Positions 5,214 to 63,606 of a stretch of 64,000 nt of DNA are shown here, one piece after another. The DNA lies in contig CAWBQQ010000002.1 of NCBI GenBank assembly GCA_963790995.1, positions 94,547-158,546 on the forward strand, written 5' to 3'. A model generated the notes under the pieces. It did no database searches. It saw only the letters and a list, made by a program, of their open reading frames with translations, and was not told the DNA's origin. The stretch is from an uncultured Bacteroidota bacterium. GTDB lineage: Bacteria; Bacteroidota; Ignavibacteria; Kryptoniales; JAKASW01. How positions within the stretch are numbered: position 1 is the first letter of the stretch; each line of letters starts with the position of its first letter. The translations under genes and the position numbers were made by a program.

Positions 5214-6632
5214 TCATCCGATGTTGTGTGATTCCGGTTCTTGATGGATAACAACTTTAGAAATCATCGGAAGCTTCTTAATGATGGCTTCTTCGAGTTC
5301 ATTTACCATCTTAACCGTATTTTCTAACGAAAGAGTTTCATCAAACTGGCACACCATCGCGACTCGAAGTCCCGACTCACTTTCCGCAAAATTCAAGTCG
5401 CTGCATCCGACGACGCCCTCATGAGATCTTACGAATTTCAAAAGTTTCACGGGGAGTTCGTTATAACGGAAATTCGGCAGCGTAGCATCTATCAGCTTTG
5501 CCGAAGATTTGTCAATGTGCACGAAAATATGATCGACATTTCTCACCTGATCACGAATGGCATGTTCGAGCGCATCGGCTTTCTTGTGTGCAGTTTCGAT
5601 GGTATCTGTGTCCTCCACTTCCAGATGCAGATCAATCTCAAATCCTGTCTTCGTGGAGAACACTTCCAGCTCGTGAATTTTTCCTTCCACCTTTTCTGCG
5701 GCAAATCGAACCTTATCTATCACAGTTTCCCTGACCGTCTCCACGGGCTCAGCATGTACCACTACGTCGATCTCGTCTCTGACGGCACGCACCCGCTTTT
5801 CGATTTCATCTACGAGTGAGTGCGCTAGCTCAAATGGTAATAGCCGCGGAAGCTCGACTACCATGTCAACAAATATTTTCCCACCGGAGTCTCTCACGCG
5901 CAAACTCTTCAACTCTTCGACTCCCTTAGTCCCGAGCGCAGCCTCGCGGATACTTGCGACCAATTTACGATTCGGGCTCCTGTCAACGAGAACATCGATT
6001 GCTCGCTTTCCAAGCCTGATGCTGATAAGCATTACAATTATCGAAACTCCTAAAGCCGCGAAGGAGTCCGCAAATCTAAATCCCATTTTGGCACCCAACA
6101 AGCCGAATATCACTATGCTTGAGCTGAGAACGTCCATCGAGAAATGGAGTGCATCGGCTTCCAATGCCTGGCTGTGAAATTTCTTTGCTGTCCTCGAAAG
6201 CATCCGTGATCTCGACAGGTCAACTGCGATTGAAGTAAGCATTACGGCAAAACTCCAAAAGGTAATTTCAACTGCAACCTTCTTGAACAGCAGTCGCACA
6301 AAAGCTTCCCTTCCGATAAGGACGCAAGTCAACAAGAGAAGTAGCGTCTCGAAAAGGGCCGAAATATTCTCAAACTTTCCGTGTCCGTAAGGATGTTCGG
6401 TATCGGCAGGTTTGTCGGCAGCCCTGACCGCAAAGAGTGTCGTGATAGCTGCAATCAAATCGAGTGCGGAATGGGCTGCCTCGCTCAGAATCCCAAGACT
6501 GCCTGTAGCAATTCCGACTACAAGTTTAAAAGTGGTGAGAAAAAAGGCGGCGATTGCAGACGTAATCGCCGCTCCGATTTTTTTGCGAGATGAATTCTTC
6601 GTCAATCGGCGTTTCAATCTGCGCACCGGCAT
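5214..6632 (-). CDS. Cation diffusion facilitator (CDF) family transporter with an extended C-terminal cytoplasmic region
   Basis: This is a 472-aa ORF. The sequences SEAAHSALDLIAAITTLFAVRAADKPADTEHPYGHGKFEN and HFSMDVLSS are CDF TM2/TM5 motifs. About 170 extra C-terminal residues follow them. Confidence 0.8.
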   Translation of the reverse strand: MPVRRLKRRLTKNSSRKKIGAAITSAIAAFFLTTFKLVVGIATGSLGILSEAAHSALDLIAAITTLFAVRAADKPADTEHPYGHGKFENISALFETLLLLLTCVLIGREAFVRLLFKKVAVEITFWSFAVMLTSIAVDLSRSRMLSRTAKKFHSQALEADALHFSMDVLSSSIVIFGLLGAKMGFRFADSFAALGVSIIVMLISIRLGKRAIDVLVDRSPNRKLVASIREAALGTKGVEELKSLRVRDSGGKIFVDMVVELPRLLPFELAHSLVDEIEKRVRAVRDEIDVVVHAEPVETVRETVIDKVRFAAEKVEGKIHELEVFSTKTGFEIDLHLEVEDTDTIETAHKKADALEHAIRDQVRNVDHIFVHIDKSSAKLIDATLPNFRYNELPVKLLKFVRSHEGVVGCSDLNFAESESGLRVAMVCQFDETLSLENTVKMVNELEEAIIKKLPMISKVVIHQEPESHNIG

Positions 6633-53855: not shown

Positions 53856-54305
53856 ATGGGAGTCAAATCAATTCCGGATGGGTATCACACAGTCACACCC
53901 GCAATCATAGTGGATGGCGCCGCGGATGTCATCTCTTTTGCGGAAGAGGTGCTAAACGCGAAAGTGGCAACAAAGATGGAGAATCCCGACGGTACGATCG
54001 GCCACGCAGAAGTTAAAATCGGAGACTCGATCGTATTTGTAGCAAACCCGATGATGGGATCTGCACCAGCACCAGGATGGCTCTACGTGTATGTAGACGA
54101 TGTCAACTCCGTTTACAGGAAAGCAATGGCAGCCGGTGCGAAGTCGGTTGAAGAACCGTCCGACAAGTTTTACGGCGACCGGACAGCAGCATTTACAGAT
54201 AGAGCCGGCAACCATTGGGGGATCGCAACGCATGTTGAAGACGTATCGCCAGCGGAAATGGAAAAACGCATAGAGGCGTACAACAAGCAAGCGCAGGAGA
54301 ATTGA
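53856..54305 (+). CDS. VOC-superfamily (glyoxalase/bleomycin-resistance, PhnB-like) protein
   Basis: The 149-aa product contains HAEVKIGDSIVFVA and FYGDRTAAFTDRAGNHWGIATH, typical of VOC/PhnB-like proteins. Confidence 0.7.
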   Translation: MGVKSIPDGYHTVTPAIIVDGAADVISFAEEVLNAKVATKMENPDGTIGHAEVKIGDSIVFVANPMMGSAPAPGWLYVYVDDVNSVYRKAMAAGAKSVEEPSDKFYGDRTAAFTDRAGNHWGIATHVEDVSPAEMEKRIEAYNKQAQEN

Positions 54306-54656
54306 GACGGTTCAACTGTCTTCTTCTTTTTCCTAAACTCTTTTTCGGGAAATCCGGTCGGAAGCTGTGTTTTACTCTGACGTTCCCGAGTGTGAGCGCA
54401 TTTGCGCCATGGCGTAAGGCGCCGCATCTATCGGGAACCCATGACGAGCGGGGGCAGTCCAAACGACCTCACCCTACCCTCTCCTTGGCAAGGAGAGGGA
54501 CACAGATCTTTTTCTCCATCCCAAGCTCCTGCTTGGGATGACCTCTGTTATGCGGGAAGTCAACTCTCGCACCGCGGAGAATCCAGACAGAGGTAAAAGC
54601 GGTCGTTAATCTGCGTTTCGCGAATCTGTGTGGTGTGTCAGCAGGGGCACATGTGA

Positions 54657-54820
54657 ACGTGCCGGTGTTTATCTGGTTCGGGCGCGACCCAACTGTATCT
54701 AACTTATTTTTTGTGTACCAGTGTTTCAATCCACGCGCCCGCGTGGGGCGCGACTCGTGTCTGCGTCCGCAAGGGTCGGATTGTCCGTGTTTCAATCCAC
54801 GCGCCCGCGTGGGGCGCGAC
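54657..54820 (-). CRISPR. Minimal type I-C CRISPR array: two intact 32-nt repeats, one degenerate terminal repeat, two 34-nt spacers
   Basis: The minus-strand repeat is GTCGCGCCCCACGCGGGCGCGTGGATTGAAAC, at 54789-54820 and 54723-54754. The spacers are at 54755-54788 and 54689-54722. The degenerate repeat at 54657-54688 retains only the GTCGCGCCC end. The repeat sequence and length fit the type I-C class, and the array lies downstream of cas2. Confidence 0.85.
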
Positions 54821-54959
54821 TGTATTACTTAAAATATCACAAATCACTCGATTTATCCAGAAAATACAACCTACGTTGCTTACCTCAAATTTGTCAAAGA
54901 ACATCTTGCCTCTATTATGCTGAAACAAGGTACTTCACTCATGCGCGCTTCGGTTAGCG
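54821..54959 (-). promoter_or_regulatory. Putative CRISPR leader
   Basis: This is an AT-rich 139-nt segment between the cas2 stop and the first repeat. The degenerate repeat is at the opposite end of the array, as expected for a leader-distal position. Confidence 0.45.
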
Positions 54960-55250
54960 TTACACAATAATCGGCTCTTCTATATCCGCTAAACCAGATT
55001 TCCCATGATGCTCAACCCGCCGCTTCCAGTTTGAACCCAAGAAATAGAACCTTAGGCTATCACTCTTCACATCGTACATCGATAGCAATTGATCCTTGAG
55101 ACTCTCCCATTGTGCGGGCTCGACGTTGCATTCGAAAACAGAATTCTGAACTCGTATTCCATAATCGACACAAGTCTCGGATATCTTCCGAAGCCGCCTT
55201 ACTCCCGCAGCTGTTGTCGTCGAAACATCGTAACTCACAAGAACCATCAT
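54960..55250 (-). CDS. cas2: CRISPR-associated endoribonuclease Cas2
   Basis: The product MMVLVSYDVSTTTAAGVRRLRKISETCVDYGIRVQNSVFEC is a canonical Cas2 N-terminus. The ORF-track start at 55280 (MPIEQAEVSY) is created by a REP-like unit. Confidence 0.9.
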   Translation of the reverse strand: MMVLVSYDVSTTTAAGVRRLRKISETCVDYGIRVQNSVFECNVEPAQWESLKDQLLSMYDVKSDSLRFYFLGSNWKRRVEHHGKSGLADIEEPIIV

Positions 55251-55265
55251 ATAAGACACCTCCGC

Positions 55266-55338
55266 TTGTTCGATAGGCATTCTTGCCTTTCATTAATCTC
55301 TATAAGAGGGACATTCAAGAATGAATGTCCGACAACAA
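55266..55338. repeat. REP-like hairpin pair (one type 1 unit plus one inverted type 2 unit) in the cas1-cas2 gap
   Basis: The units are TTGTTCGATAGGCATTCTTGCCTTTCATT (55266-55294) and GGGACATTCAAGAATGAATGTCCGACAACAA (55308-55338, opposite orientation). Confidence 0.8.
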
Positions 55339-55351
55339 TAATTGTCACCTT

Positions 55352-56458
55352 TCATTTCATATAAAACGGCGGATATTCTTGAATATCTCCGCGGATGTAC
55401 CTTGCCATTAGCTGAGCTTGAATATGCGGCAAGAGCCCAATAGTCATCTTCTCGCCAAGAAAAGGGTGCGTGATCTCTTCCTGCTTTCGCTTCTGATAGG
55501 CAGTGAGCACTTTCTTCCGTGCCTCATCTGACATTCTCACTTCTCCCGATTCACGAATCTCAAAATCTTTCTTCGTGACCTGCTTCAGGTTAATCAGATT
55601 CAGCATAATACGATCTCCTAAATACGCTCGAAACTCCTCCATGATGTCAAGGGCAAGACTTGGTCTTCCGGATCTCAGCTGGTGAAGAAAGCCAACCTGA
55701 GGATCAAGCCCCGTCGTTTCAACTGCCGATCTAACATCATTCGCAAGAATCGCATATAGAAACGAAAGCAGCGCATTTGCGGGGTCGAGCGGCGGCCGCT
55801 TCGAGCGGGCAGTGAATTCAAATTCCTCAACGACTATTAAAGATGACAGCACTCCGAAATACATCGCGGCACACTCGCCTTCGTAGCCACGAAGCTCATC
55901 AAGAGTCTCTGCCTCTTGAATGTCAGGTAAACGACCGCCCATCGCGGCTGCAACGGATTCCACTGCTCCTGAGGATTCTTCGTCGGGTATCCTCCCTAGC
56001 TCTTCAATTGATTCTTCAGTTGGACAAACATTCCTGTTTGTCCCATTCTTGTCTGTCCCTAATTCCGGATGATTCCTCTGGTGACGGAGCAGAAGGTTTC
56101 TATAGTTTGCCACCTTCGCCGCAATAATGGGACGCGCAATTGATAACGAGCATGGTTCACTGTCCGCCGTTGCATACTGTGCCTTCCGAAGCAATACGTT
56201 TCCCTGCTGAGCACCAGAGACATGGGCGAGGAACTTTCCATTCTCCGACAGATAACTAATTCCGACATTATTCTCCGCACAGAACGCCATAAGAGCAGGT
56301 GAAAGAGCTTTGAAGCCGAAACAGACAATATTTTCAATCGAATGAACCGGCGCCTGAAATACTCTCTTGTTGTCTACTTCAACAACAAACGTTTCTCTTT
56401 CTTTGTGGACATAGGCATCATCAGAGGTAATGTAAAGATTGTTGAGATGTTTTTTCAT
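55352..56458 (-). CDS. cas1: CRISPR-associated endonuclease Cas1 (type I-C), with a REP-derived in-frame insertion
   Basis: The sequences MKKHLNNLYITSDDAYVHKERETFVV, RGYEGECAAMYFG, NALLSFLYAIL and GLDPQVGFLHQLRSGRPSLALDIMEEFR follow the Cas1 pattern. The ORF-track start at 56485 (MSVEQ) lies inside a REP unit. Confidence 0.9.
   Translation of the reverse strand: MKKHLNNLYITSDDAYVHKERETFVVEVDNKRVFQAPVHSIENIVCFGFKALSPALMAFCAENNVGISYLSENGKFLAHVSGAQQGNVLLRKAQYATADSEPCSLSIARPIIAAKVANYRNLLLRHQRNHPELGTDKNGTNRNVCPTEESIEELGRIPDEESSGAVESVAAAMGGRLPDIQEAETLDELRGYEGECAAMYFGVLSSLIVVEEFEFTARSKRPPLDPANALLSFLYAILANDVRSAVETTGLDPQVGFLHQLRSGRPSLALDIMEEFRAYLGDRIMLNLINLKQVTKKDFEIRESGEVRMSDEARKKVLTAYQKRKQEEITHPFLGEKMTIGLLPHIQAQLMARYIRGDIQEYPPFYMK
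56019..56058. repeat. REP-like hairpin unit plus a half unit inside the cas1 coding sequence
   Basis: The sequence is GTTGGACAAACATTCCTGTTTGTCC followed by CATTCTTGTCTGTCC. It encodes GTDKNGTNRNVCPT in the cas1 frame. Confidence 0.7.
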
Positions 56459-56470
56459 ATTTCTTTCAGA

Positions 56471-56560
56471 TTGTTCGACAGACATTCTTGTCTGTCATTG
56501 GCATTCCTGCCTGCCATCGGTACTCCTGCTCAAGTTCGACAGACATTCTTGTCTGTCATC
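56471..56560. repeat. REP-like hairpins (two full units and one partial) filling the cas4-cas1 gap
   Basis: The full units are TTGTTCGACAGACATTCTTGTCTGTCATT (56471-56499) and AAGTTCGACAGACATTCTTGTCTGTCATC (56532-56560, overlapping the cas4 stop). The partial unit is GGCATTCCTGCCTGCC. Confidence 0.85.
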
Positions 56561-57269
56561 AAGACAAATACAAATTCTTCAAATAGTTCTTAAGCTTTCT
56601 TTCATTCATAGCCTTCGGCATACACACCGGCTCCAGCGAACAATTCCGGCACTTTGCCGAATACTCTGCGGCCGGCGTTCGCTTGTTTGCTATCAACTCA
56701 CGAACTTGCGCAATGATCTCTTCCGTCTGATTACGCAGATCACTGTCAATCTCGACCCGCACACGCCGTCGGATCTTTCCATAGAAGAATGCACCATGGG
56801 TCACCTGAATATTCATCATTTCTCCCAGGCAGAGTGCTTGTGCACAAAGCTGTACTTTGTCGCTGATATCGTCCTTCGGCTCACCTGACTTAAACTCCAC
56901 CGGGACAATCAAGAATGATTGTCCGACATTTTTCTCATCTTGTGCTTGTTCGAAAGGCATTCGCTCTTGTTCGACAGACATTCTTGTCTGTCTAAAGAAT
57001 TCCACCACATCACATCTTCCTGAAATCCCAAGTCGAAACGAATGAACCTTTAGCCCTCGCACAGTCTTTATCGACCCGCGAGACTCATAAGTATCAGTAT
57101 CCACCTTCTCATGCATTATATCGCCCCGTACAGTAAACACATTTTCATGCCATACATCCTCGACGTGTATCAGGGCGCACTGCCGCGGACAATAGACATA
57201 ATGCTGCAACGCACTTATCTGAAAGAAATCGTCTTCAGTGTACGGCGTCGATGGACTTGATTCAATCAT
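56559..57269 (-). CDS. cas4: CRISPR-associated exonuclease Cas4 (type I-C) carrying an in-frame triple REP insertion
   Basis: The sequences ISALQHYVYCPRQCALIHVEDVWHEN, GRCDVVEF, PVEFKSGEPK, VQLCAQALCL and C-terminal CRNCSL..C form the RecB-nuclease/4Fe-4S pattern of Cas4. Confidence 0.9.
   Translation of the reverse strand: MIESSPSTPYTEDDFFQISALQHYVYCPRQCALIHVEDVWHENVFTVRGDIMHEKVDTDTYESRGSIKTVRGLKVHSFRLGISGRCDVVEFFRQTRMSVEQERMPFEQAQDEKNVGQSFLIVPVEFKSGEPKDDISDKVQLCAQALCLGEMMNIQVTHGAFFYGKIRRRVRVEIDSDLRNQTEEIIAQVRELIANKRTPAAEYSAKCRNCSLEPVCMPKAMNERKLKNYLKNLYLS
56902..56993. repeat. Three REP-like units inside the cas4 coding sequence
   Basis: The units are GGGACAATCAAGAATGATTGTCCGACATT (56902-56930, type 2), CTTGTTCGAAAGGCATTCGCTCTT (56945-56968, degenerate) and TTGTTCGACAGACATTCTTGTCTGTCT (56967-56993). 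Confidence 0.8.
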
Positions 57270-57292
57270 TAATCATACCGTAATTTACCTCC

Positions 57293-57517
57293 ATGGAAAG
57301 GGAAGATAAGATAAACTTTCGCGTTGAATTTGAACAGGAAGAGGACGGACGGTGGATCGCTGAAGTCGTCGATATACCGGGTGTACTTGCATACGGAAAG
57401 TCGCAAGAAGAAGCGATGTTGAAGGCGCAAGCGCTCGCCCTGCGTGTCCTTGCCGAGAGAATCGATATAGGCGAGGTTTCCGCGATGCCACTTACGATTT
57501 CCTTCCTCGCTGCATGA
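57293..57517 (+). CDS. hicB: HicB-family antitoxin-like protein (UPF0150)
   Basis: The 74-aa product contains FRVEFEQEEDGRWIAEVVDIPGVLAYGKSQEEAMLKAQALA, typical of the HicB N-domain. Its stop overlaps the hicA start by 4 nt. Confidence 0.7.
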   Translation: MEREDKINFRVEFEQEEDGRWIAEVVDIPGVLAYGKSQEEAMLKAQALALRVLAERIDIGEVSAMPLTISFLAA

Positions 57518-57729
57518 GGCAGTGGTCCTCTCAGAAAGCCCGCCGTGTGCTCGCCGCTCTGCTTCGCACTGGTTGGACGATCAAGCGCGAGACTGCAGGT
57601 TCCCACAAAATTCTCTCCCGTCCAGGTTGGACAGATTACGTTTTTAGTTTTCACGATGCAGAAGAAATTGGTCCGAAGATGCTTGCCCGAATCGCCAAAC
57701 ACACGGGCTTGAAGCCGGAAGATCTGTAA
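57514..57729 (+). CDS. hicA: HicA-family mRNA interferase toxin (YcfA-like)
   Basis: The 71-aa product contains KARRVLAALLRTGWTIKRETAGSHKIL...FHDAEEIGPKMLARIAKHTGLKPEDL, the HicA pattern with the catalytic GSH. Confidence 0.7.
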   Translation: MRQWSSQKARRVLAALLRTGWTIKRETAGSHKILSRPGWTDYVFSFHDAEEIGPKMLARIAKHTGLKPEDL

Positions 57730-57744
57730 CAACGGATGCTCCTG

Positions 57745-57856
57745 TCTTTTTCCATTCATGCTCGACATCAGTAAATCGATGCTGCCGCGGACAAATACAC
57801 ATATAATGTTGCAGAGCGCTTATTTGAAAAAAATCGCCTTCAGTGTACACGCACTC
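57745..57856 (-). pseudogene. Duplicated, diverged 5' fragment of cas4
   Basis: The minus-strand translation VYTEGDFFQISALQHYMCICPRQHRFTDVEHEW parallels cas4 residues PYTEDDFFQISALQHYVYCPRQCALIHVEDVWHEN. The DNA similarity to 57140-57245 is visible by eye. Confidence 0.7.
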
Positions 57857-57858
57857 TC

Positions 57859-57887
57859 CAGTTCGACGGGCATTTTTGCCTGTCATT
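57859..57887. repeat. REP-like hairpin immediately 3' of the RAYT-like gene
   Basis: The unit is CAGTTCGACGGGCATTTTTGCCTGTCATT. Confidence 0.75.
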
Positions 57888-57893
57888 AGATAA

Positions 57894-58346
57894 TTATTCT
57901 TCTTCATTCAAATACCATCCCACATACTTCTCCGGCTCTTCTGTCAGTTCTTTCTTCACCGGATTATTGTACATATAGTTTAGCTCATTCTTGAACTCGA
58001 CATCATTACGCACTATTCGATCATACGACTCATCCTGCCAGACTTGCCCTCCGGTTCCTCTGTGCAAATTGATCTTATGCGCCGAGACACCTTTCATTCC
58101 ATGCATAACGCGGCTGAGAGTTACGCTTTCATTCGGCTGAATGAGAAGGTGGGCATGATCCGGCATCACCATGGCGGCATAGCAATGATAGAAAGCTCCA
58201 TTCCCTTCCTTGATATGTTCTAAGACGATACGTTGTTCCTCTTCGTCAAAAAATATTCCTCTTGCAGCATGGAGCGTAACAAAATAAACGGATCCTTCGA
58301 GAGTCCAATGCGGCAGATGCCGCCGTGTAATTCTCAATTCAACCAT
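57894..58346 (-). CDS. REP-associated tyrosine transposase-like protein (RAYT; IS200/IS605-type HUH Y1 transposase fold)
   Basis: This is a 150-aa ORF. It has the N-terminus RRHLPHWTLEGSVYFVT, the HUH motif in MVMPDHAHLLIQP, and the Tyr region VWQDESYDRIVRNDVEFKNELNYMYNNPVKKEL, as in RAYT/TnpA-REP proteins. Confidence 0.75.
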   Translation of the reverse strand: MVELRITRRHLPHWTLEGSVYFVTLHAARGIFFDEEEQRIVLEHIKEGNGAFYHCYAAMVMPDHAHLLIQPNESVTLSRVMHGMKGVSAHKINLHRGTGGQVWQDESYDRIVRNDVEFKNELNYMYNNPVKKELTEEPEKYVGWYLNEEE

Positions 58347-58358
58347 AATCTTTCAATG

Positions 58359-58577
58359 TTGTTCGACCGACATTCTTGTCGGTCATTCACATTCCTGCAT
58401 CCTGCTCGACAGGCATTCCTGCGTGTCATTCAAGCAATAAGGGGACACTCAAGAATGAGTGTCCGACAACAAATGAATGTCTGACAAGTGAGTGTCCGAC
58501 AGTGATTCAATTCGACAAACAATCGTGTCTTGTTCGACAAACGCGCTAGCGTTCGACAGACATTCTTGTCTGTCAGT
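58359..58577. repeat. Dense cluster of about 8 REP-like units (both orientations, full and partial) between the RAYT-like gene and cas7
   Basis: Full and near-full units are at 58359-58387 (GACCGAC/GTCGGTC stem), 58402-58430, 58441-58472 (type 2, GGACACTC/GAGTGTCC) and 58549-58577 (consensus unit). Half units are at 58473-58502, and degenerate units at 58508-58546. Confidence 0.85.
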
Positions 58578-58578
58578 T

Positions 58579-59424
58579 CTACAATTTCTCTTCTATCGAA
58601 ACGCCATTCGGAAGTTTGTCTCTTTCAATAGAAACTTCATAATCATTCCACGCACGCGGGAGCACAACCTCCTTTTTCTTTTCAACCTTCACTCGCTCGA
58701 AGAGTTCTCCTGCTCTTGCATTGCCAAGATGGCTTTCGTGTTTGAATACGATGAGCTTTCTTGGATTCATTTCTCCACGCGCCGCAGAGCGATCATGCTC
58801 AAAAGCATTCACTAATGCTTCCCACAACAAACTCAAATCGTCTTCGGAGAAACCAGTCTTTGCCGCATCAACTGCCGAGACAAATCCGTGCATCCTGTAA
58901 AGACCATATGGGACAGTAGATTTCCTGCCTATGGTTGATGCAAATTCCCTCTTTTCTTGCTTTTTCGCTTCCTCTTCAGTCGCAACCGCTTGGCGCGTAA
59001 TAGAGTGCTCAGCTTGATAAACGCGGTCTTCAGAACGAGAAAATGTAAACTGTACAGGACCACGAACAGTACCTGCATTGTTCTCGCCTGTACTTAATAC
59101 AGCACCGAATGTCCGGATATCCCAGTAGCTTTTGCACAGATCAACCTGACGATCGTGTGGGGTCTTTCCCTTTGCTTTTTCTATGATATTATTCAAGATG
59201 TTTCCCTGACGAATGAAGATTTCAGGTCCATCTTCATTCCCCTGTGATTTCACTTCAACATAGTTCCGCACTTTGCGTTTGATGCAGACATCAGTCACCA
59301 ATCCCTCCTGATTCTCTGCATCGACGCGCGGAAGGTTGTCCTGATCAGGATCACCATTGGGATTTCCGTCCTTCACATCGAATAGGAATACAAAATCATA
59401 ACGGTTTTTAATTGTGGTTGCCAT
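58579..59424 (-). CDS. cas7: Type I-C Cas7 (Csd2)
   Basis: The product MATTIKNRYDFVFLFDVKDGNPNGDPDQDNLPRVDAENQEGLVTDVCIKRKVRNY is the canonical Csd2 N-terminus. GAGGAG lies upstream of the ATG at 59424. The ORF-track start at 59547 overlaps cas8c. Confidence 0.9.
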   Translation of the reverse strand: MATTIKNRYDFVFLFDVKDGNPNGDPDQDNLPRVDAENQEGLVTDVCIKRKVRNYVEVKSQGNEDGPEIFIRQGNILNNIIEKAKGKTPHDRQVDLCKSYWDIRTFGAVLSTGENNAGTVRGPVQFTFSRSEDRVYQAEHSITRQAVATEEEAKKQEKREFASTIGRKSTVPYGLYRMHGFVSAVDAAKTGFSEDDLSLLWEALVNAFEHDRSAARGEMNPRKLIVFKHESHLGNARAGELFERVKVEKKKEVVLPRAWNDYEVSIERDKLPNGVSIEEKL

Positions 59425-59428
59425 GGTA

Positions 59429-61210
59429 TTACTCCTCTTTATTACTTGATTTAGTTGAAAAATCTTTTTGCCGTTGGTGATAATACCCGATCGCAAAACT
59501 TGCCTGGTCTTCGAGTGAAAATACAGTCGGGAAGCGAGTGCCTTCAACTTTCGACATCAGTTCCTGCAATTTCTTGTCAAGATTTATTGCAAGCCCTGGC
59601 TTTTCTCCCTGAATCTTCGACAAGTGATGCTGAGTCAGCTTCATCAATCTTCCAAATGCAGTTGACGGCATTGTGGAGGCGAATGAAAAGAATCGTTCGC
59701 GGATACCTGCATTTAGATTGCCACCCGAAGCATGATATTGAATTGATTCGAGGACGGCAAAAATCTTTCCGCAGGTATATGCCGTATTTTCACCTGTTCC
59801 ATCCTGTTCAGACATAAGTTTACTCCTTTCGATTGGATTGTTTTTTCGTTTTAGATATAAGTTCAGAAGAGCAATGCGTTCAGCCGTCGCATTTCCCTGT
59901 GCTGCTCGAATTCTATTCAAGACAGCACTCAACAACCAGAGCGGCGGTGGTTGTCCCGTGACGGCACATTTCCAAAGCACCGCGCCAATTCTCCCGTATT
60001 GAACATCATTCGTGCTTTTGCTTTTCGCAGATTTAACCAATTCCCAGAAACGTGGATATTGTTTCACAAGTTTTTCGTGGTCTGGATCATACCGCTCAAT
60101 TTCGATGTCCCTAAACCACTTCGCCAAATTCGTCTGAAGATCTTTGAGACTTGTCACTATCCAATCTCGCACAGCAATTCGGGCCGCTGTCCCACTAAGC
60201 GTTATTGCGTAGAATGTGTCTCGCTCGATTTTAGTCGCAGATGTCTTGTGACCATCGTAAACAGAGTCGAACATTGCACGAACGGCGTCTTCGGTAGGGT
60301 TGTCGAGAATATCAAGAAGAGATGCCTCGGTGGATTTCCGAAGCCAGAAGACTACAGCGGTATCATCTGAAATATTCCTACGGTTCTTATAGATAAATAT
60401 CTCTTTGCCTTTATCATTAAGTTTTGAGGTACCGTTAGAAAGAAGCCAATTTAAAGCATCCACATAGGCACGCGCACATCTTGCGCAAACAGAAGAATTC
60501 TCATTTCCTCTTAAGCCATAGGATTCTGTTGCATTGAAGTTGTATGAGATGAGCGCGCAACCGGATGTTTGTCCGGCAGGCACGCGCTTGATCATCCCAT
60601 GTGGAAAATCGACAACGGGGAAAGACGACAACCCGCAAATCGAGCATTTGTCAAAACGACTGCTTTTCAATCTTACTTCTGACTCTTCTTCGAATCTACC
60701 AATTATAGCTTCGTAGATTGGATTTTGCTCATGGATTCGTTTTGCACCATTAGTTAAAAGAAACCCGATGTTCCCACTTCTTTCTTTTTCCGTGACCTCG
60801 CTTCCAAAAGCATGCAACGCTTTTTCAACACCGTTCTTTCTATTGGACTCATAAAATGAGAGAATAGGAGACAACCCCTTTACGTCTCTGTATTCATTTA
60901 GCTTATCGCGAAATAACTTATGTTTGAATTCAACTTGTTGCTTTGACTTTTCTCGTTTTTTCTTGTCCTTCTCTTTTTCATCGAAGAATCCCAGCACCTC
61001 TTCAGGTTTATCCACAAGAAGGCGAGCTTTCCCCTTTTTTGCAGTGATTCTCTCTGCCAACGTTTGCTGTTTATCATGCGCAATAAATTTCTTAAAGTTT
61101 CCTTTTTGATCGATTACACAATCGATGGACACTGGGACGTAATCGAGAGCATCGTGGGATAATTTTCCTTTCGGAAGTCTCCCTGAAAGTTCTACTAGTT
61201 CTTGAATCAT
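59429..61210 (-). CDS. cas8c: Type I-C large subunit Cas8c (Csd1)
   Basis: This is a 593-aa ORF positioned between cas5 and cas7 with 4-nt overlap coupling to cas5. Its size and N-terminus (MIQELVELSGRLPKG...) fit Csd1. Confidence 0.8.
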   Translation of the reverse strand: MIQELVELSGRLPKGKLSHDALDYVPVSIDCVIDQKGNFKKFIAHDKQQTLAERITAKKGKARLLVDKPEEVLGFFDEKEKDKKKREKSKQQVEFKHKLFRDKLNEYRDVKGLSPILSFYESNRKNGVEKALHAFGSEVTEKERSGNIGFLLTNGAKRIHEQNPIYEAIIGRFEEESEVRLKSSRFDKCSICGLSSFPVVDFPHGMIKRVPAGQTSGCALISYNFNATESYGLRGNENSSVCARCARAYVDALNWLLSNGTSKLNDKGKEIFIYKNRRNISDDTAVVFWLRKSTEASLLDILDNPTEDAVRAMFDSVYDGHKTSATKIERDTFYAITLSGTAARIAVRDWIVTSLKDLQTNLAKWFRDIEIERYDPDHEKLVKQYPRFWELVKSAKSKSTNDVQYGRIGAVLWKCAVTGQPPPLWLLSAVLNRIRAAQGNATAERIALLNLYLKRKNNPIERSKLMSEQDGTGENTAYTCGKIFAVLESIQYHASGGNLNAGIRERFFSFASTMPSTAFGRLMKLTQHHLSKIQGEKPGLAINLDKKLQELMSKVEGTRFPTVFSLEDQASFAIGYYHQRQKDFSTKSSNKEE

Positions 61211-61923
61211 GGCACTTCCTCCTCCGAAGACTCCTCCGCAAGATTGAATTCATGAATAAGTTGTCTAGGATACTCTGCAATTTCCTTGCGCGGATGTGAG
61301 CTTGAAAGTATTTGTTCGCCGTAGTCTTTGCTGCAATCCAACACCCCTTGCTTCACTGCAACATCGTAGAAAAACTTCGGCGTTGGAACGCCCTTCTCAT
61401 CGTACCACATATCAAGGAACATACTGCCAACAGGAATGTCTTCCGTAATAGATTTGTCGTTTTCATCAGGCAGAGAGAACTCTGCGGCAAATTCTCTTGT
61501 CCCAAGATATGGTCTGCGCCAACATTGACCTTTCCGCGCGCGACGATTAAACATTTCCATGTATTTCCTGGTAGGGTTTTTCACGGGTGAAGTCGCCTCG
61601 TGGACGGCCGCCTCGATGATATAAGCAACATCTTTCAGGATGATGCTATTGCGTTGTGCACGATCTTCTTCAACAATGATTGGCATCTTGCCCTGCTTCT
61701 TATTGATCTCATTTCTCTTTACAGAATAAAATTTCACAGGCTTGAGTACGAGGATGCGTTGCATATGCCACGCGAACTCGGGTTTCCAGAGAACACTATC
61801 CAGAATGCCACGCGCTGCCGATGGAGTCATGCAAGGATATGTCATGCGCTCAACTTTCAGATCGGGACGCGTAAAGCACGCAAACTCTCCCCACACTTTA
61901 AGTCTTACAGTATTGTCGTACAT
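61207..61923 (-). CDS. cas5: Type I-C Cas5 (Cas5d, pre-crRNA endoribonuclease)
   Basis: The sequence RLKVWGEFACFTRPDLKVERMTYPCMTPSAARGILDSVLWKPEF is the Cas5d signature. Confidence 0.9.
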   Translation of the reverse strand: MYDNTVRLKVWGEFACFTRPDLKVERMTYPCMTPSAARGILDSVLWKPEFAWHMQRILVLKPVKFYSVKRNEINKKQGKMPIIVEEDRAQRNSIILKDVAYIIEAAVHEATSPVKNPTRKYMEMFNRRARKGQCWRRPYLGTREFAAEFSLPDENDKSITEDIPVGSMFLDMWYDEKGVPTPKFFYDVAVKQGVLDCSKDYGEQILSSSHPRKEIAEYPRQLIHEFNLAEESSEEEVP

Positions 61924-61950
61924 ATTTTGTCCTTTCTATTTCAAAAATAT

Positions 61951-61980
61951 CCAGTCGGTCAGACATTCTTGTCTGACCAG
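61951..61980. repeat. REP-like hairpin in the cas3-cas5 gap
   Basis: The unit is CCAGTCGGTCAGACATTCTTGTCTGACCAG, with an 8-bp stem (GGTCAGAC/GTCTGACC) and an ATTCTT loop. Confidence 0.8.
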
Positions 61981-61991
61981 ATACAACTCTT

Positions 61992-63606
61992 CTAAAAGAC
62001 TGTCTCAACGTCTTCAGGCGCAATGCCAAGCTTTTGGTCATATTTGCCATGCCAAACTCTCAGAACATCTTTGATGTTTTCGATCTGTTTCTCGTTATTC
62101 CTCAGAAAATTCCGATATACCTGCACGCTGAATTGCTGAATTCTCCGATACTGTTCACGAGTGACAAACCCGCGGAAGATTAGCGACTCAGTGACTTCGT
62201 TCAGCAATGCTTTGCTCTCCTCGGAATAATCGGGGATGAATAAAGGTACAGTTGGACTTTCAATAATCTTATATTGCTCGCTGACGGTCTTGAAATTGAA
62301 ATCCTTCCGCTCCGCGGTGATATTGTATTTGTCAGCATCGACCAGCAATGCGACTCGTTTGTAATAGCCATGAAATGAGTCAATGTGATAAAGGAAATCC
62401 AGATCGTCCTTGATCAAGACTTCTGTCAAGCCTGCACAGGCCTCGTAAGTCCTATCTGGGAATCTCTGTTTCTCTAATTTGAAGATGACAACCTTGCCTT
62501 TCGCTTCGCCGGGATCACCGTTTCGGTTACATCTTCCAGCAGATTGGATCAACGCATCGAGAGGTGCCATGGCCCGATAAACGATTGGAAAATCTAAATC
62601 AACACCAGCTTCCACTAATTGTGTCGATACCACAGATATTCGCGTTTTATCCTTAAGATCTCGAACAATACATGAAATGATCTTCTTTCGATGATGAGGA
62701 CACATAGCTGTGGACAAATGATAATGTTCGTGGTATCCTTTGAAACTCGATATCCTTCCAAACAGCTCCATGGCAACAGATTTTGTATTGGCAATAACCA
62801 GAAAAGATTTTTTCTCTCTGGAAAGTTTCTCTTCCACAATGTCCATGGCACTCGGCTCGAGTTTGTTCAGCAATTTATAGTCCACACGCCGAGTGGAATC
62901 AAAATATATCTTCGAGTTTCTGATCAGCGGTCGGATTCTTTCGATCCCATCGAAGCCTTCACGCTTTTCAAATGCTGGCAATGTAGCCGTGCAGAACAAG
63001 AAACTGGTATTGGCAAGTGTATTGATGTTCTTCAGCATTATGACCGTGGGCTCCGCAATGTGTTTCGGCAAGGTCTGAATCTCGTCGAAGATTACTACGG
63101 ACTCGGAGATGTTATGATTTTTCCGACATTTGGACGATCTGTTGCTAAACAAAGATTCGAAGAACTGAACCGAAGTCGTTACAATGATCGGCGCATCCCA
63201 ATTTTCGCAAGCGAGGCGCTTTGCAAACGCGACGCTTTTGTCGAATTCTTCCTTGGCATATTGTTCATCATCGTCTATTATTCCAGAATGATGTTCCAGT
63301 ACAATGTTTTCACCAAAGATGTCTTTCAAAATCGATGCGGTTTGGTCAATGATATTGATATAGGGAAGAACAATGATGATCCGTTTCAAATGATTGTGCT
63401 TAGCATGGCGCAACGCCCAATACATTGACGTTAGAGTTTTTCCCAGTCCGGTCGGCAACTGAAGAGAGAAGAAACCATGCACTTCGTTTGCAGATCCCGT
63501 CACTTCAATTCTTGCTTTTGTTCGAAGTTCATTTATTATACCATCGGTTGGAAGTTGCTTGAATACTTCTTCGAGTTTGTCAAGCAAGCGTTCACATAAG
63601 CGGTCT
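61992..63606 (-). pseudogene. cas3: cas3 (helicase part only); 5' HD-nuclease region missing at the IS3 junction
   Basis: The helicase motifs are present: LQLPTGLGKTLTS (I), VIFDEIQTLP (II), FCTATLP (III) and QSAGRCNR (VI). Only about 45 residues precede motif I. The frame stays open (QDRLCER-LLDKLEE) right up to the IS end at 63607. Confidence 0.8.

Follow-up and report, generated by a model that had tools for sequence, protein, structure and literature searches.

A type I-C Cas4 carries two REP-type hairpin units and a half-unit, in frame, between its catalytic residues

We analysed the cas4 gene (56559-57269, minus strand; an intact open reading frame, ORF, of 236 aa) of a type I-C CRISPR operon in a 64,000-nucleotide stretch of contig CAWBQQ010000002.1 from an uncultured Bacteroidota bacterium; this whole stretch is called the window, and all coordinates refer to it. 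The gene carries an insert of two full hairpin units of the repetitive extragenic palindrome (REP) type and one truncated half-unit, in frame, between the catalytic residues Asp87 and Glu125/Lys127. The extra Cas4 loop consists of REPs, hairpin repeats of a type that RAYT (REP-associated tyrosine transposase) mobilises. We put at roughly 0.85 the probability of the overall account given below, in which a RAYT gene resident in the operon spread its REPs along it and into the Cas4 loop, which tolerates them. A preliminary description of the window had proposed three in-frame units in cas4; the frame and the two full units stand, while the middle unit proved to be only a truncated half. The peptide flanked by GRCDVVE and PVEFKSG had been read correctly as FFRQTRMSVEQERMPFEQAQDEKNVGQSFLIV (residues 91-122). 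The parts of the insert are as follows:

56904-56999, minus strand: loop-coding segment of 96 nt (Cas4 residues 91-122)
56902-56929, minus strand: type-2 REP unit; hairpin at 56903-56924, GGACAATCA AGAA TGATTGTCC; E 4.8e-5
56930-56943, minus strand: non-REP spacer of 14 nt between the units, encoding roughly AQDEKN, as read from the sequence
56944-56962, plus strand: truncated half-unit, with the 5' flank, the left arm and half of the loop and without the right arm; encodes ERMPFEQ
56963-56993, plus strand: type-1 (consensus) REP unit; hairpin at 56973-56992; read antisense by cas4 as RQTRMSVEQ; nhmmer E 1.5e-7

Within the type-1 unit, the 23-mer TTCGACAGACATTCTTGTCTGTC (56970-56992) is present with 0 mismatches. 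Identical copies stand in intergenic DNA at 56474, 56535 and 58552, with a two-mismatch copy at 58362, and the number of matches expected by chance, from shuffles of the window, is 0.00. This identity bears directly on the idea that the loop is a hypervariable Cas4 segment growing by slippage or duplication, with a merely coincidental likeness to REPs. Loop length does vary (10-44 residues in the 117 closest homologs whose loops had definable limits), but the exact 23-nt matches refute such growth for this window; moreover, long loops almost always carry strong palindromes and short ones do not, and the type-1 unit is translated in other frames among homologs (DKQECLSN in protein P0023 against RQTRMSV here). 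We give this explanation next to no credence.

The other parts of the insert belong to the same family. The type-2 unit, translated as VGQSFLIV and adjoining the conserved Pro123 codon, is an inverted version of the type-1 sequence, with compensated changes at two positions of the stem (GGACAATCA/TGATTGTCC), and has sister units at 55307-55337 and 58442-58470. The half-unit is weak by itself in a profile scan (E 0.6), and its segment TTGTTCGAAAGGCATTC (56946-56962) agrees with the 5' half of the consensus in 16 of 17 bases, against a chance expectation of 0.01 matches. The 14-nt spacer may be a remnant of the original loop. Around it the cas4 units are arranged head-to-head, whereas the intergenic doublets are tail-to-tail; a single canonical REPIN, or REP doublet, was therefore rejected as the source of the insert, its unit orientation being the reverse of the intergenic one. 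An assembly artefact is unlikely, because an independent soil metagenome contig from another sequencing run spans 56778-57189 with zero differences.

A profile scan of the 64 kb located at least 13 REP units in the cas operon, all within 55263-58577 and at 61950-61975, and these surround a RAYT gene on both sides, the arrangement known as a REPtron. The gene and the copies outside cas4 are:

57894-58346, minus strand (that of the cas genes): RAYT gene, between cas7 and cas4; HUH motif PDHAHLL, catalytic Tyr in NYMYNNP
58356-58577: REP cluster in the cas7-RAYT spacer, with units at 58356-58388, 58399-58431, 58442-58470 (inverted) and 58546-58577, plus degenerate pieces
57856-57888, plus strand: REP unit that follows the RAYT gene directly on its 3' side and adjoins a decayed cas4 5' fragment
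56468-56499 and 56528-56559, plus strand: two type-1 units at the cas4-cas1 junction
56017-56061, plus strand: REP unit and half-unit inside cas1, in frame, encoding GTDKNGTNRNVCPT; E 3e-4
55263-55337: REP doublet at the cas1-cas2 junction, type 1 followed by inverted type 2; overlaps the start of the annotated cas2 ORF
61950-61975, plus strand: single REP unit at the cas3-cas5 junction, GGTCAGACATTCTTGTCTGACC; a weaker match, E 0.008

The RAYT assignment draws on several profiles. The ORF passes the NCBI curated cut-off of NF047646, REP-associated tyrosine transposase (89.1 bits against 80), scores below the IS200 cut-off and matches PF01797 at 3.5e-9; its homologs carry the JGI name RayT, and both PDHAHLL and NYMYNNP are conserved in the RAYT alignment. 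Each of seven chromosomal relatives (44-62% identical) has hairpins of the same type within about 130 bp.

The hairpins themselves have stems of 8-9 bp with a 4-nt loop and are present in the minimum-free-energy fold. Across 42 distinct units, 92.9% of stem cells are paired and 38 cells are changed on both sides, a level reached by 0 of 500 shuffles; stem pairs 13-24 and 14-23 covary, switching among GC, CG, AU and UA. Tail-to-tail inverted doublets occur at 55263-55337 and 58399-58470, and also at the homologous loci L005, L007, L018, L025 and L028. At the 5' foot of the hairpin the window units have GTTC or GTCG, and relatives at L007, L018, L021 and L110 have GTAG, the foot by which the superfamily of RAYT-linked REPs is defined (PMC3733652). 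The REP origin of the cas4 units is supported by this covariation together with the exact identity to the intergenic copies that flank the RAYT gene.

In soil metagenome data, loose contig ends from two runs (X2 and X3) at 56477, 58408 and 58555 show a REP match followed by sequence unlike the window, and one such foreign flank is common to both runs, a hint that REP copies exist in at least two other contexts in the samples. Contigs from four soil metagenome runs over 54900-58700 gave no joints or indels of the kind expected from excision or empty-site variants, an absence that means little at a coverage of only 3-5x in contigs rather than reads.

Comparison with homologous operons shows what the loop looks like with and without the insert. 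In 74 of 103 loci the Cas4 loop has 11-14 residues, and its DNA contains no notable hairpin. The nearest such empty site, L112, has the loop FRRTSNNADQPM, encoded by 36 nt (12 residues) against 96 nt (32 residues) in the window, a net gain of 60 nt or 20 residues. The preliminary description had given the type I-C spacer as about 10 residues, and its estimate of roughly 25-30 extra residues was too high. Despite its short cas4 loop, the L112 operon carries a RAYT gene, with REPs, in the cas7-cas4 interval. The separation between the catalytic Asp and Glu, 18 residues in the nearest empty-site relatives, is 38 in the window.

The same three-part insert is found in a Kryptoniota sister lineage (L001-L004, four assemblies; Cas4 87% identical), which gives independent support to the observation. 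The type-2 unit is 100% identical between the window and L001, and the length differences of the insert, +3 and -6 nt, fall in the half-unit. The refuting case named in the preliminary description, an equivalent loop of similar sequence in homologs free of REPs, did not turn up: all similar peptides are encoded by hairpin DNA, and the hairpin-free homologs have 11-14 residues.

The short, apparently empty loops of three Ignavibacteriota loci (L021, L022 and L025; about 6244-6279 in each) read AAAGACAAGAATGAACAAGAAGAA, which contains ACAAGAATG and GAACAAG. Both strings recur in the REP unit on the coding strand, as its arm-loop edge and its flank. Their presence could be due to chance, from Lys, Asn, Glu and Gln codons, or could mark a remnant of an old unit.

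How such units can be carried by a coding gene is apparent from their reading frames. Six-frame translation of the type-1 unit meets a stop in one frame only, and this is the frame that cas4 uses, where the canonical tail yields TGA. In the cas4 copy, however, CTAAA stands in place of the usual CATT of the 3' tail and the in-frame TGA is lost; window and L001 alike have A in place of the stop-making T. Four frames of the type-2 unit are open, and cas4 uses one of them. Among homologs with single-unit loops, the peptides include VRRQTEMSVV, FLRQTDMSVAAV and HRSDVGQSFRAV. Together with the alternative frame of P0023, these data show that selection acts on an open frame at a probably permissive place and not on a particular peptide.

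To place the insert in the fold, we used an AlphaFold2 model of Cas4 made with 47 homologs and the structure of the Alkalihalobacillus halodurans type I-C Cas4 (PDB 8d3l). The latter matches the window protein at 1e-47 by sequence and 1e-18 by fold, and shares its DEK motif, iron-sulphur (Fe-S) cysteines and C-terminal helix. Since its DEK residues are D82, E108 and K110 (Dhingra et al. 2022, 10.1101/2022.05.30.494039), the match places the insert between the catalytic Asp and Glu, which are 26 residues apart in A. halodurans (D82 to E108) and 38 in the window. In the model, strands 82-93 and 119-127 form a beta-hairpin, and residues 96-116 form an unstructured tip with a predicted local distance difference test (pLDDT) score below 50. 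The regions named as type I-C contacts are the N-terminus, the C-terminal helix and the protospacer adjacent motif (PAM) pocket, and this loop is not among them (10.1101/2022.05.30.494039). The loop is therefore predicted to be solvent-exposed and away from the Cas1 and DNA interfaces. The modelling proposed earlier did yield a hairpin-tip loop, at low confidence and in a modest model.

These data also bear on whether the inserted peptide was selected as protein, through an altered contact with Cas1 or DNA or through escape from a phage inhibitor. The loop lies next to the active site in sequence and is expanded in about 40% of close homologs. However, the dN/dS of the insert (nonsynonymous over synonymous divergence) is 0.74, near relatives have wholly different loop peptides, AlphaFold2 shows no structure there, and the published type I-C structure leaves the loop out of the interfaces. 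Selection on the peptide is thus very unlikely.

The core of cas4 and its insert have diverged in different ways. Between the window and L001 the core has a synonymous divergence (dS) of 1.38 and a nonsynonymous divergence (dN) of 0.053, giving a dN/dS of 0.038, whereas the dS of the insert is 0.12, with 2 changes at about 17.5 synonymous sites. Because the insert is common to both lineages and the core dN/dS is so low, the gene has been under strong purifying selection while carrying the insert. From sequence and selection we predict that this Cas4 is most likely active.

The preliminary description had left two outcomes side by side: an insertion tolerated in a surface loop, or a very recent pseudogene, inactivated but still open by chance. 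The second could draw on the three foreign units between catalytic residues, on the very small CRISPR array and on the HicAB cassette and decayed cas4 5' fragment just upstream. Nevertheless, the insert is shared across a dS of about 1.4 with a core under constraint, its indels are multiples of three, every catalytic and Fe-S residue is kept in an invariant column, and the stop-creating tail base is missing from the cas4 copy. We consequently rejected the pseudogene as highly improbable. Toleration in a surface loop is supported by the sister insert, the low dN/dS and the in-frame indels, with surface exposure itself predicted from the model. The earlier observation that the frame and all downstream motifs are preserved also held, for the catalytic residues as for the four cysteines.

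Synonymous divergence is about 10 times lower in the insert than in the flanking codons (Fisher p = 5e-5). The sole change in a full cas4 unit converts a stem A-T pair to G-C; pairing is kept at the cost of two replacements, T to A and S to P, so that RQTRMSV in the window corresponds to RQARMPV in L001. The REP unit in cas1 shows a compensated stem change of the same kind, and the cas1 insert has a dS of 0.29 against 1.05 in its core (p = 0.006). A recombination tract was considered as the cause of the low insert dS and rejected, because differences reappear right outside the insert on either side. The inserted DNA evolves in the manner of a nucleic-acid element, and its peptide drifts. The low dS may stem from selection for the hairpin, from gene conversion between neighbouring copies, or from renewed copying. 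Such nucleic-acid conservation (low dS, compensated stems) with peptide drift is the signature of the maintenance of something other than protein.

The hairpins might thus have been co-opted as cis elements, acting either as RNA stem-loops (in mRNA stability, processing or translation, and so in the Cas4:Cas1:Cas2 ratio) or as DNA sites bound by RAYT. We regard this as a tentative possibility, with the odds against it. The synonymous drop is bounded exactly by the insert, and compensatory changes are kept at an amino-acid cost in cas4 and also in the cas1 unit, but gene conversion among nearby REPs or re-copying would give the same low dS and compensated stems. Units occupy most junctions between genes of the operon and are absent elsewhere in the 64 kb, yet their number and arrangement at the junctions differ between the window and L001, and many related operons function without any such hairpins. 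The retention of units by a sister lineage whose operon lacks the RAYT gene would suit a cis function, as would the RNA roles thought to be played by REPs in other bacteria (PMC3733652). The fold energy of the whole insert is only modestly unusual (z -2.4), and there is no match to an Rfam family: a scan of 54000-59000 at E up to 1 returned two CRISPR repeats only and left the hairpins unmatched.

Taken together, the data lead to the following probable sequence of events. A REPtron, that is, a RAYT gene with its flanking REPs, would have become resident in the type I-C operon between cas7 and cas4. As an HUH/Y1 single-strand DNA transposase, RAYT would be the agent that copied its REPs along the operon, and copies would have reached four junctions (cas3-cas5, cas7-cas4 around the RAYT gene, cas4-cas1 and cas1-cas2), a loop of cas1 and the loop of cas4. 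The cas4 target would be the loop joining the two beta-strands that bear the catalytic Asp and the Glu-x-Lys. At least two events would be involved there, bringing the type-1 unit and half-unit to one side of the old loop and the type-2 unit to the other. The copies would survive by being in frame, read without stops, and placed where a beta-hairpin has a tip with room for additional residues.

Some observations weigh against this account or parts of it. In the profile scan, the rest of the window, roughly 55 kb beyond the cas genes and the array, contained no REP copy. The L001 operon has no RAYT gene and has nevertheless kept the insert, and ongoing RAYT activity is therefore not needed there. 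The low dS of the insert is based on only the 17.5 or so synonymous sites given above. The CRISPR array is tiny, and a recent relaxation of selection on adaptation is possible in this lineage. Finally, the Cas4 model is mediocre, with a mean pLDDT of 63.7, and is silent on contacts with Cas1 or DNA.

The window is one of several cases in which a RAYT gene is embedded among cas genes. Close homologs of the RAYT protein (66-89% identical) are encoded inside type I-C operons, co-oriented with the cas genes, in several Kryptoniota, Ignavibacteriota, Chlorobiota and Bacteroidota assemblies. The gene stands between cas7 and cas4 at L005, L028, L111 and L112, and between cas4 and cas1 at L007, L018, L020, L021, L022 and L025 (Ignavibacteriota, Chlorobiota and Bacteroidota assemblies). 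All 10 of these cas-embedded homologs are flanked by hairpins of the same kind. In a neighbour-joining tree without bootstrap, each positional class forms a clade of its own, and one chromosomal copy (L115) nests between the two. A clade specific to cas operons was considered and rejected, the relatives at 44-62% identity lying in ordinary chromosomal neighbourhoods. A literature search that was not exhaustive gave no report of RAYT or of a Y1 transposase in cas operons; nor did it give one of REPs within cas4 or cas1, or of an insert of this kind being conserved at the nucleotide level.

The Cas4 loop, in turn, has been expanded many times. It has 15-44 residues in 47 of the 117 closest homologs (about 40%), and almost always 11-12 in more distant type I-C Cas4 proteins (45-50% identity). 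The peptides of the expanded loops are typical of translated palindromes and fall into several unrelated families (KGRL...EGDL, GHSELVSES, DSGFRRND and RRLPSAGVESQSKVTFG); where readable, their DNA forms strong hairpins. The Cas4 loop is thus a place where such elements repeatedly land or are retained, and at least five of these events were independent.

Palindromes unrelated to the window family were seen in the Cas4 loop at L006, L010, L027, L031, L032, L037, L047, L098 and L111, in proteins P0003, P0006, P0014-16, P0021, P0039, P0089 and P0109; examples are AAAGGTCGCCTTC...GAAGGCGACCTTT, translated as KGRL...EGDL, and CCCCGGCCTTCAGGCCGGGG. A search for second copies in their own loci (L006, L010, L027, L037, L047 and L098), which are short, gave none that was convincing, and these palindromes are candidate repeats only. 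In P0002, a further insertion appears to be nested within a type-1 hairpin.

With RAYT genes at the cas7-cas4 or cas4-cas1 junction in Kryptoniota, Ignavibacteriota, Chlorobiota and Bacteroidota, one may ask whether the REPtron is a long-term resident of type I-C adaptation modules and more than a hitch-hiker, with RAYT coupled to spacer acquisition or the hairpins regulatory, and with the Cas4 loop as a preferred landing pad for elements of this kind, beyond being a tolerant site. We consider this broader proposal unlikely. In any case, a RAYT gene, thought to move repeats, is here a conserved, co-oriented gene in adaptation operons of several phyla, which offers a compact setting for the role of RAYT and REPs.

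REPs within genes have been described before, and the earlier remark that in-frame cases are rare is fair as to frequency, although they are not new. Di Nocera, De Gregorio and Rocco (2013, PMC3733652) documented GTAG/CGTC-tagged REPs lying wholly inside ORFs, in frame; intragenic dimers or groups often encode 20-30 residues, intragenic REPs are over-represented in DNA synthesis and repair genes, the recB genes of two Xanthomonas species have different REPs at about the same site, and GTAG REPs flank RAYT genes in REPtrons. Cas4 being a RecB-family nuclease, the window case fits the recB pattern closely, and relatives of the window units (L021 and L110) carry the GTAG tag. Conversely, the window units have GTTC or GTCG in the place of GTAG, their visible copies are in one operon, the host genes are the CRISPR adaptation genes cas4 and cas1 with the REPtron inside the operon itself, and the Cas4 loop has been hit repeatedly by unrelated palindromes in many lineages. 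In-frame REPs are thus already known, and a cas-embedded REPtron and the repeated use of the Cas4 loop go further. In-frame REPs illustrate that a protein can be lengthened by selfish DNA and survive, which has happened twice in this operon, once between the catalytic residues of a nuclease.

The classical REPIN-RAYT systems of Pseudomonas and Enterobacteria (Bertels and Rainey 2011, PMC3116915; Bertels et al. 2017, PMC5581495) resemble the window in that RAYT is flanked by cognate hairpins, with inverted doublets, stem covariation and, probably, long-term inheritance. They comprise hundreds of extragenic copies spread over the chromosome, whereas the visible copies of the window lie within about 3.6 kb of the RAYT gene in one operon, and chromosomal relatives of this gene have hairpins only in their immediate vicinity. 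The nearest described parallel to such clustering is the GTAG-23 family of Thermomicrobium roseum (PMC3733652). Rickettsia palindromic elements (Ogata et al. 2000 and 2002, summarised in PMC10969869) are the classical case of selfish palindromes in frame in functional genes, at positions judged compatible with the fold. These elements are about 100-150 bp long, with a conserved peptide and no known dedicated transposase. The window units, by comparison, measure about 27-30 nt, are associated with RAYT and are translated in differing frames.

The gene is otherwise a regular type I-C cas4. The protein matches Pfam Cas_Cas4 (5.7e-26) and TIGR00372 (127 bits; cut-off 65), and has the RecB-like DEK motif (D87/E125/K127), the QhxxY motif with Q140 and four Fe-S cysteines (Cys27/207/210/216), all of these residues being invariant columns of the homolog alignment. 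It lies between cas7 and cas1 in a cas3-cas5-cas8c-cas7-cas4-cas1-cas2 operon, of which the other parts are:

61992-63587, minus strand: cas3
61207-61923, minus strand: cas5
59429-61210, minus strand: cas8c
ending at 58579, minus strand: cas7
55352-56455, minus strand: cas1
54960 to about 55250, minus strand: cas2
54690-54821: CRISPR array, with two intact repeats (54721 and 54787) and a terminal one that is degenerate

The two intact repeats of the array (GTCGCGCCCCACGCGGGCGCGTGGATTGAAACAC) and the degenerate terminal one leave room for one or two spacers.

A decayed piece of the cas4 5' end (codons about 10-40) is found at 57719-57850, upstream of the full gene, and a HicAB toxin-antitoxin pair (HicB and HicA; 57293-57729, plus strand) sits between this fragment and the full cas4. 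The layout of cas7, cas4 fragment, cargo and full cas4 recurs with other cargo at L011, L012, L016, L018, L019, L022, L028 and L062, and the 5' end of cas4 looks like a recurrent cargo insertion point. At L019 (4164-4850) the cargo slot is occupied by a different Y1-transposase-like ORF. This ORF includes the peptide GRLLQRENVLEGDLLPR, resembling the palindrome-encoded KGRL...EGDL of Cas4 loops, and may thus contain a palindrome inserted in frame in a transposase gene.

Cas1 also carries an insert, of 28 residues (LGTDKNGTNRNVCPTEESIEELGRIPDEESSG), which holds the REP unit and half-unit at 56017-56061. Its counterparts have 23 residues in L001-L004 and 16 in L005. Overall, the Cas1 insert is present in only 6 of 86 aligned loci, representing three distinct lineages (the window, L001-L004 and L005), and is lacking in the other 80 or so.

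REP units at gene junctions also alter the apparent starts of genes. As noted in the preliminary description, the consensus unit gives an MSVEQ peptide that falsely extends the N-terminus of Cas1: the first cas4-cas1 junction unit (56468-56499) creates this start, the cas1 ORF opens at 56485, and the ortholog starts at MKKHL, equivalent to 56455, so that MSVEQSERN (56456-56485) is a false extension. Similarly, cas2 has a false extension, MPIEQAEVSY, before MMVLV (55251-55280), and the Pfam Cas2 match begins at residue 11 of the annotated ORF. For annotation, REP-made false starts and odd loop peptides should not be taken as new protein features. Similar REP-encoded false starts occur in the database Cas4 entries P0005, P0011 and P0029.

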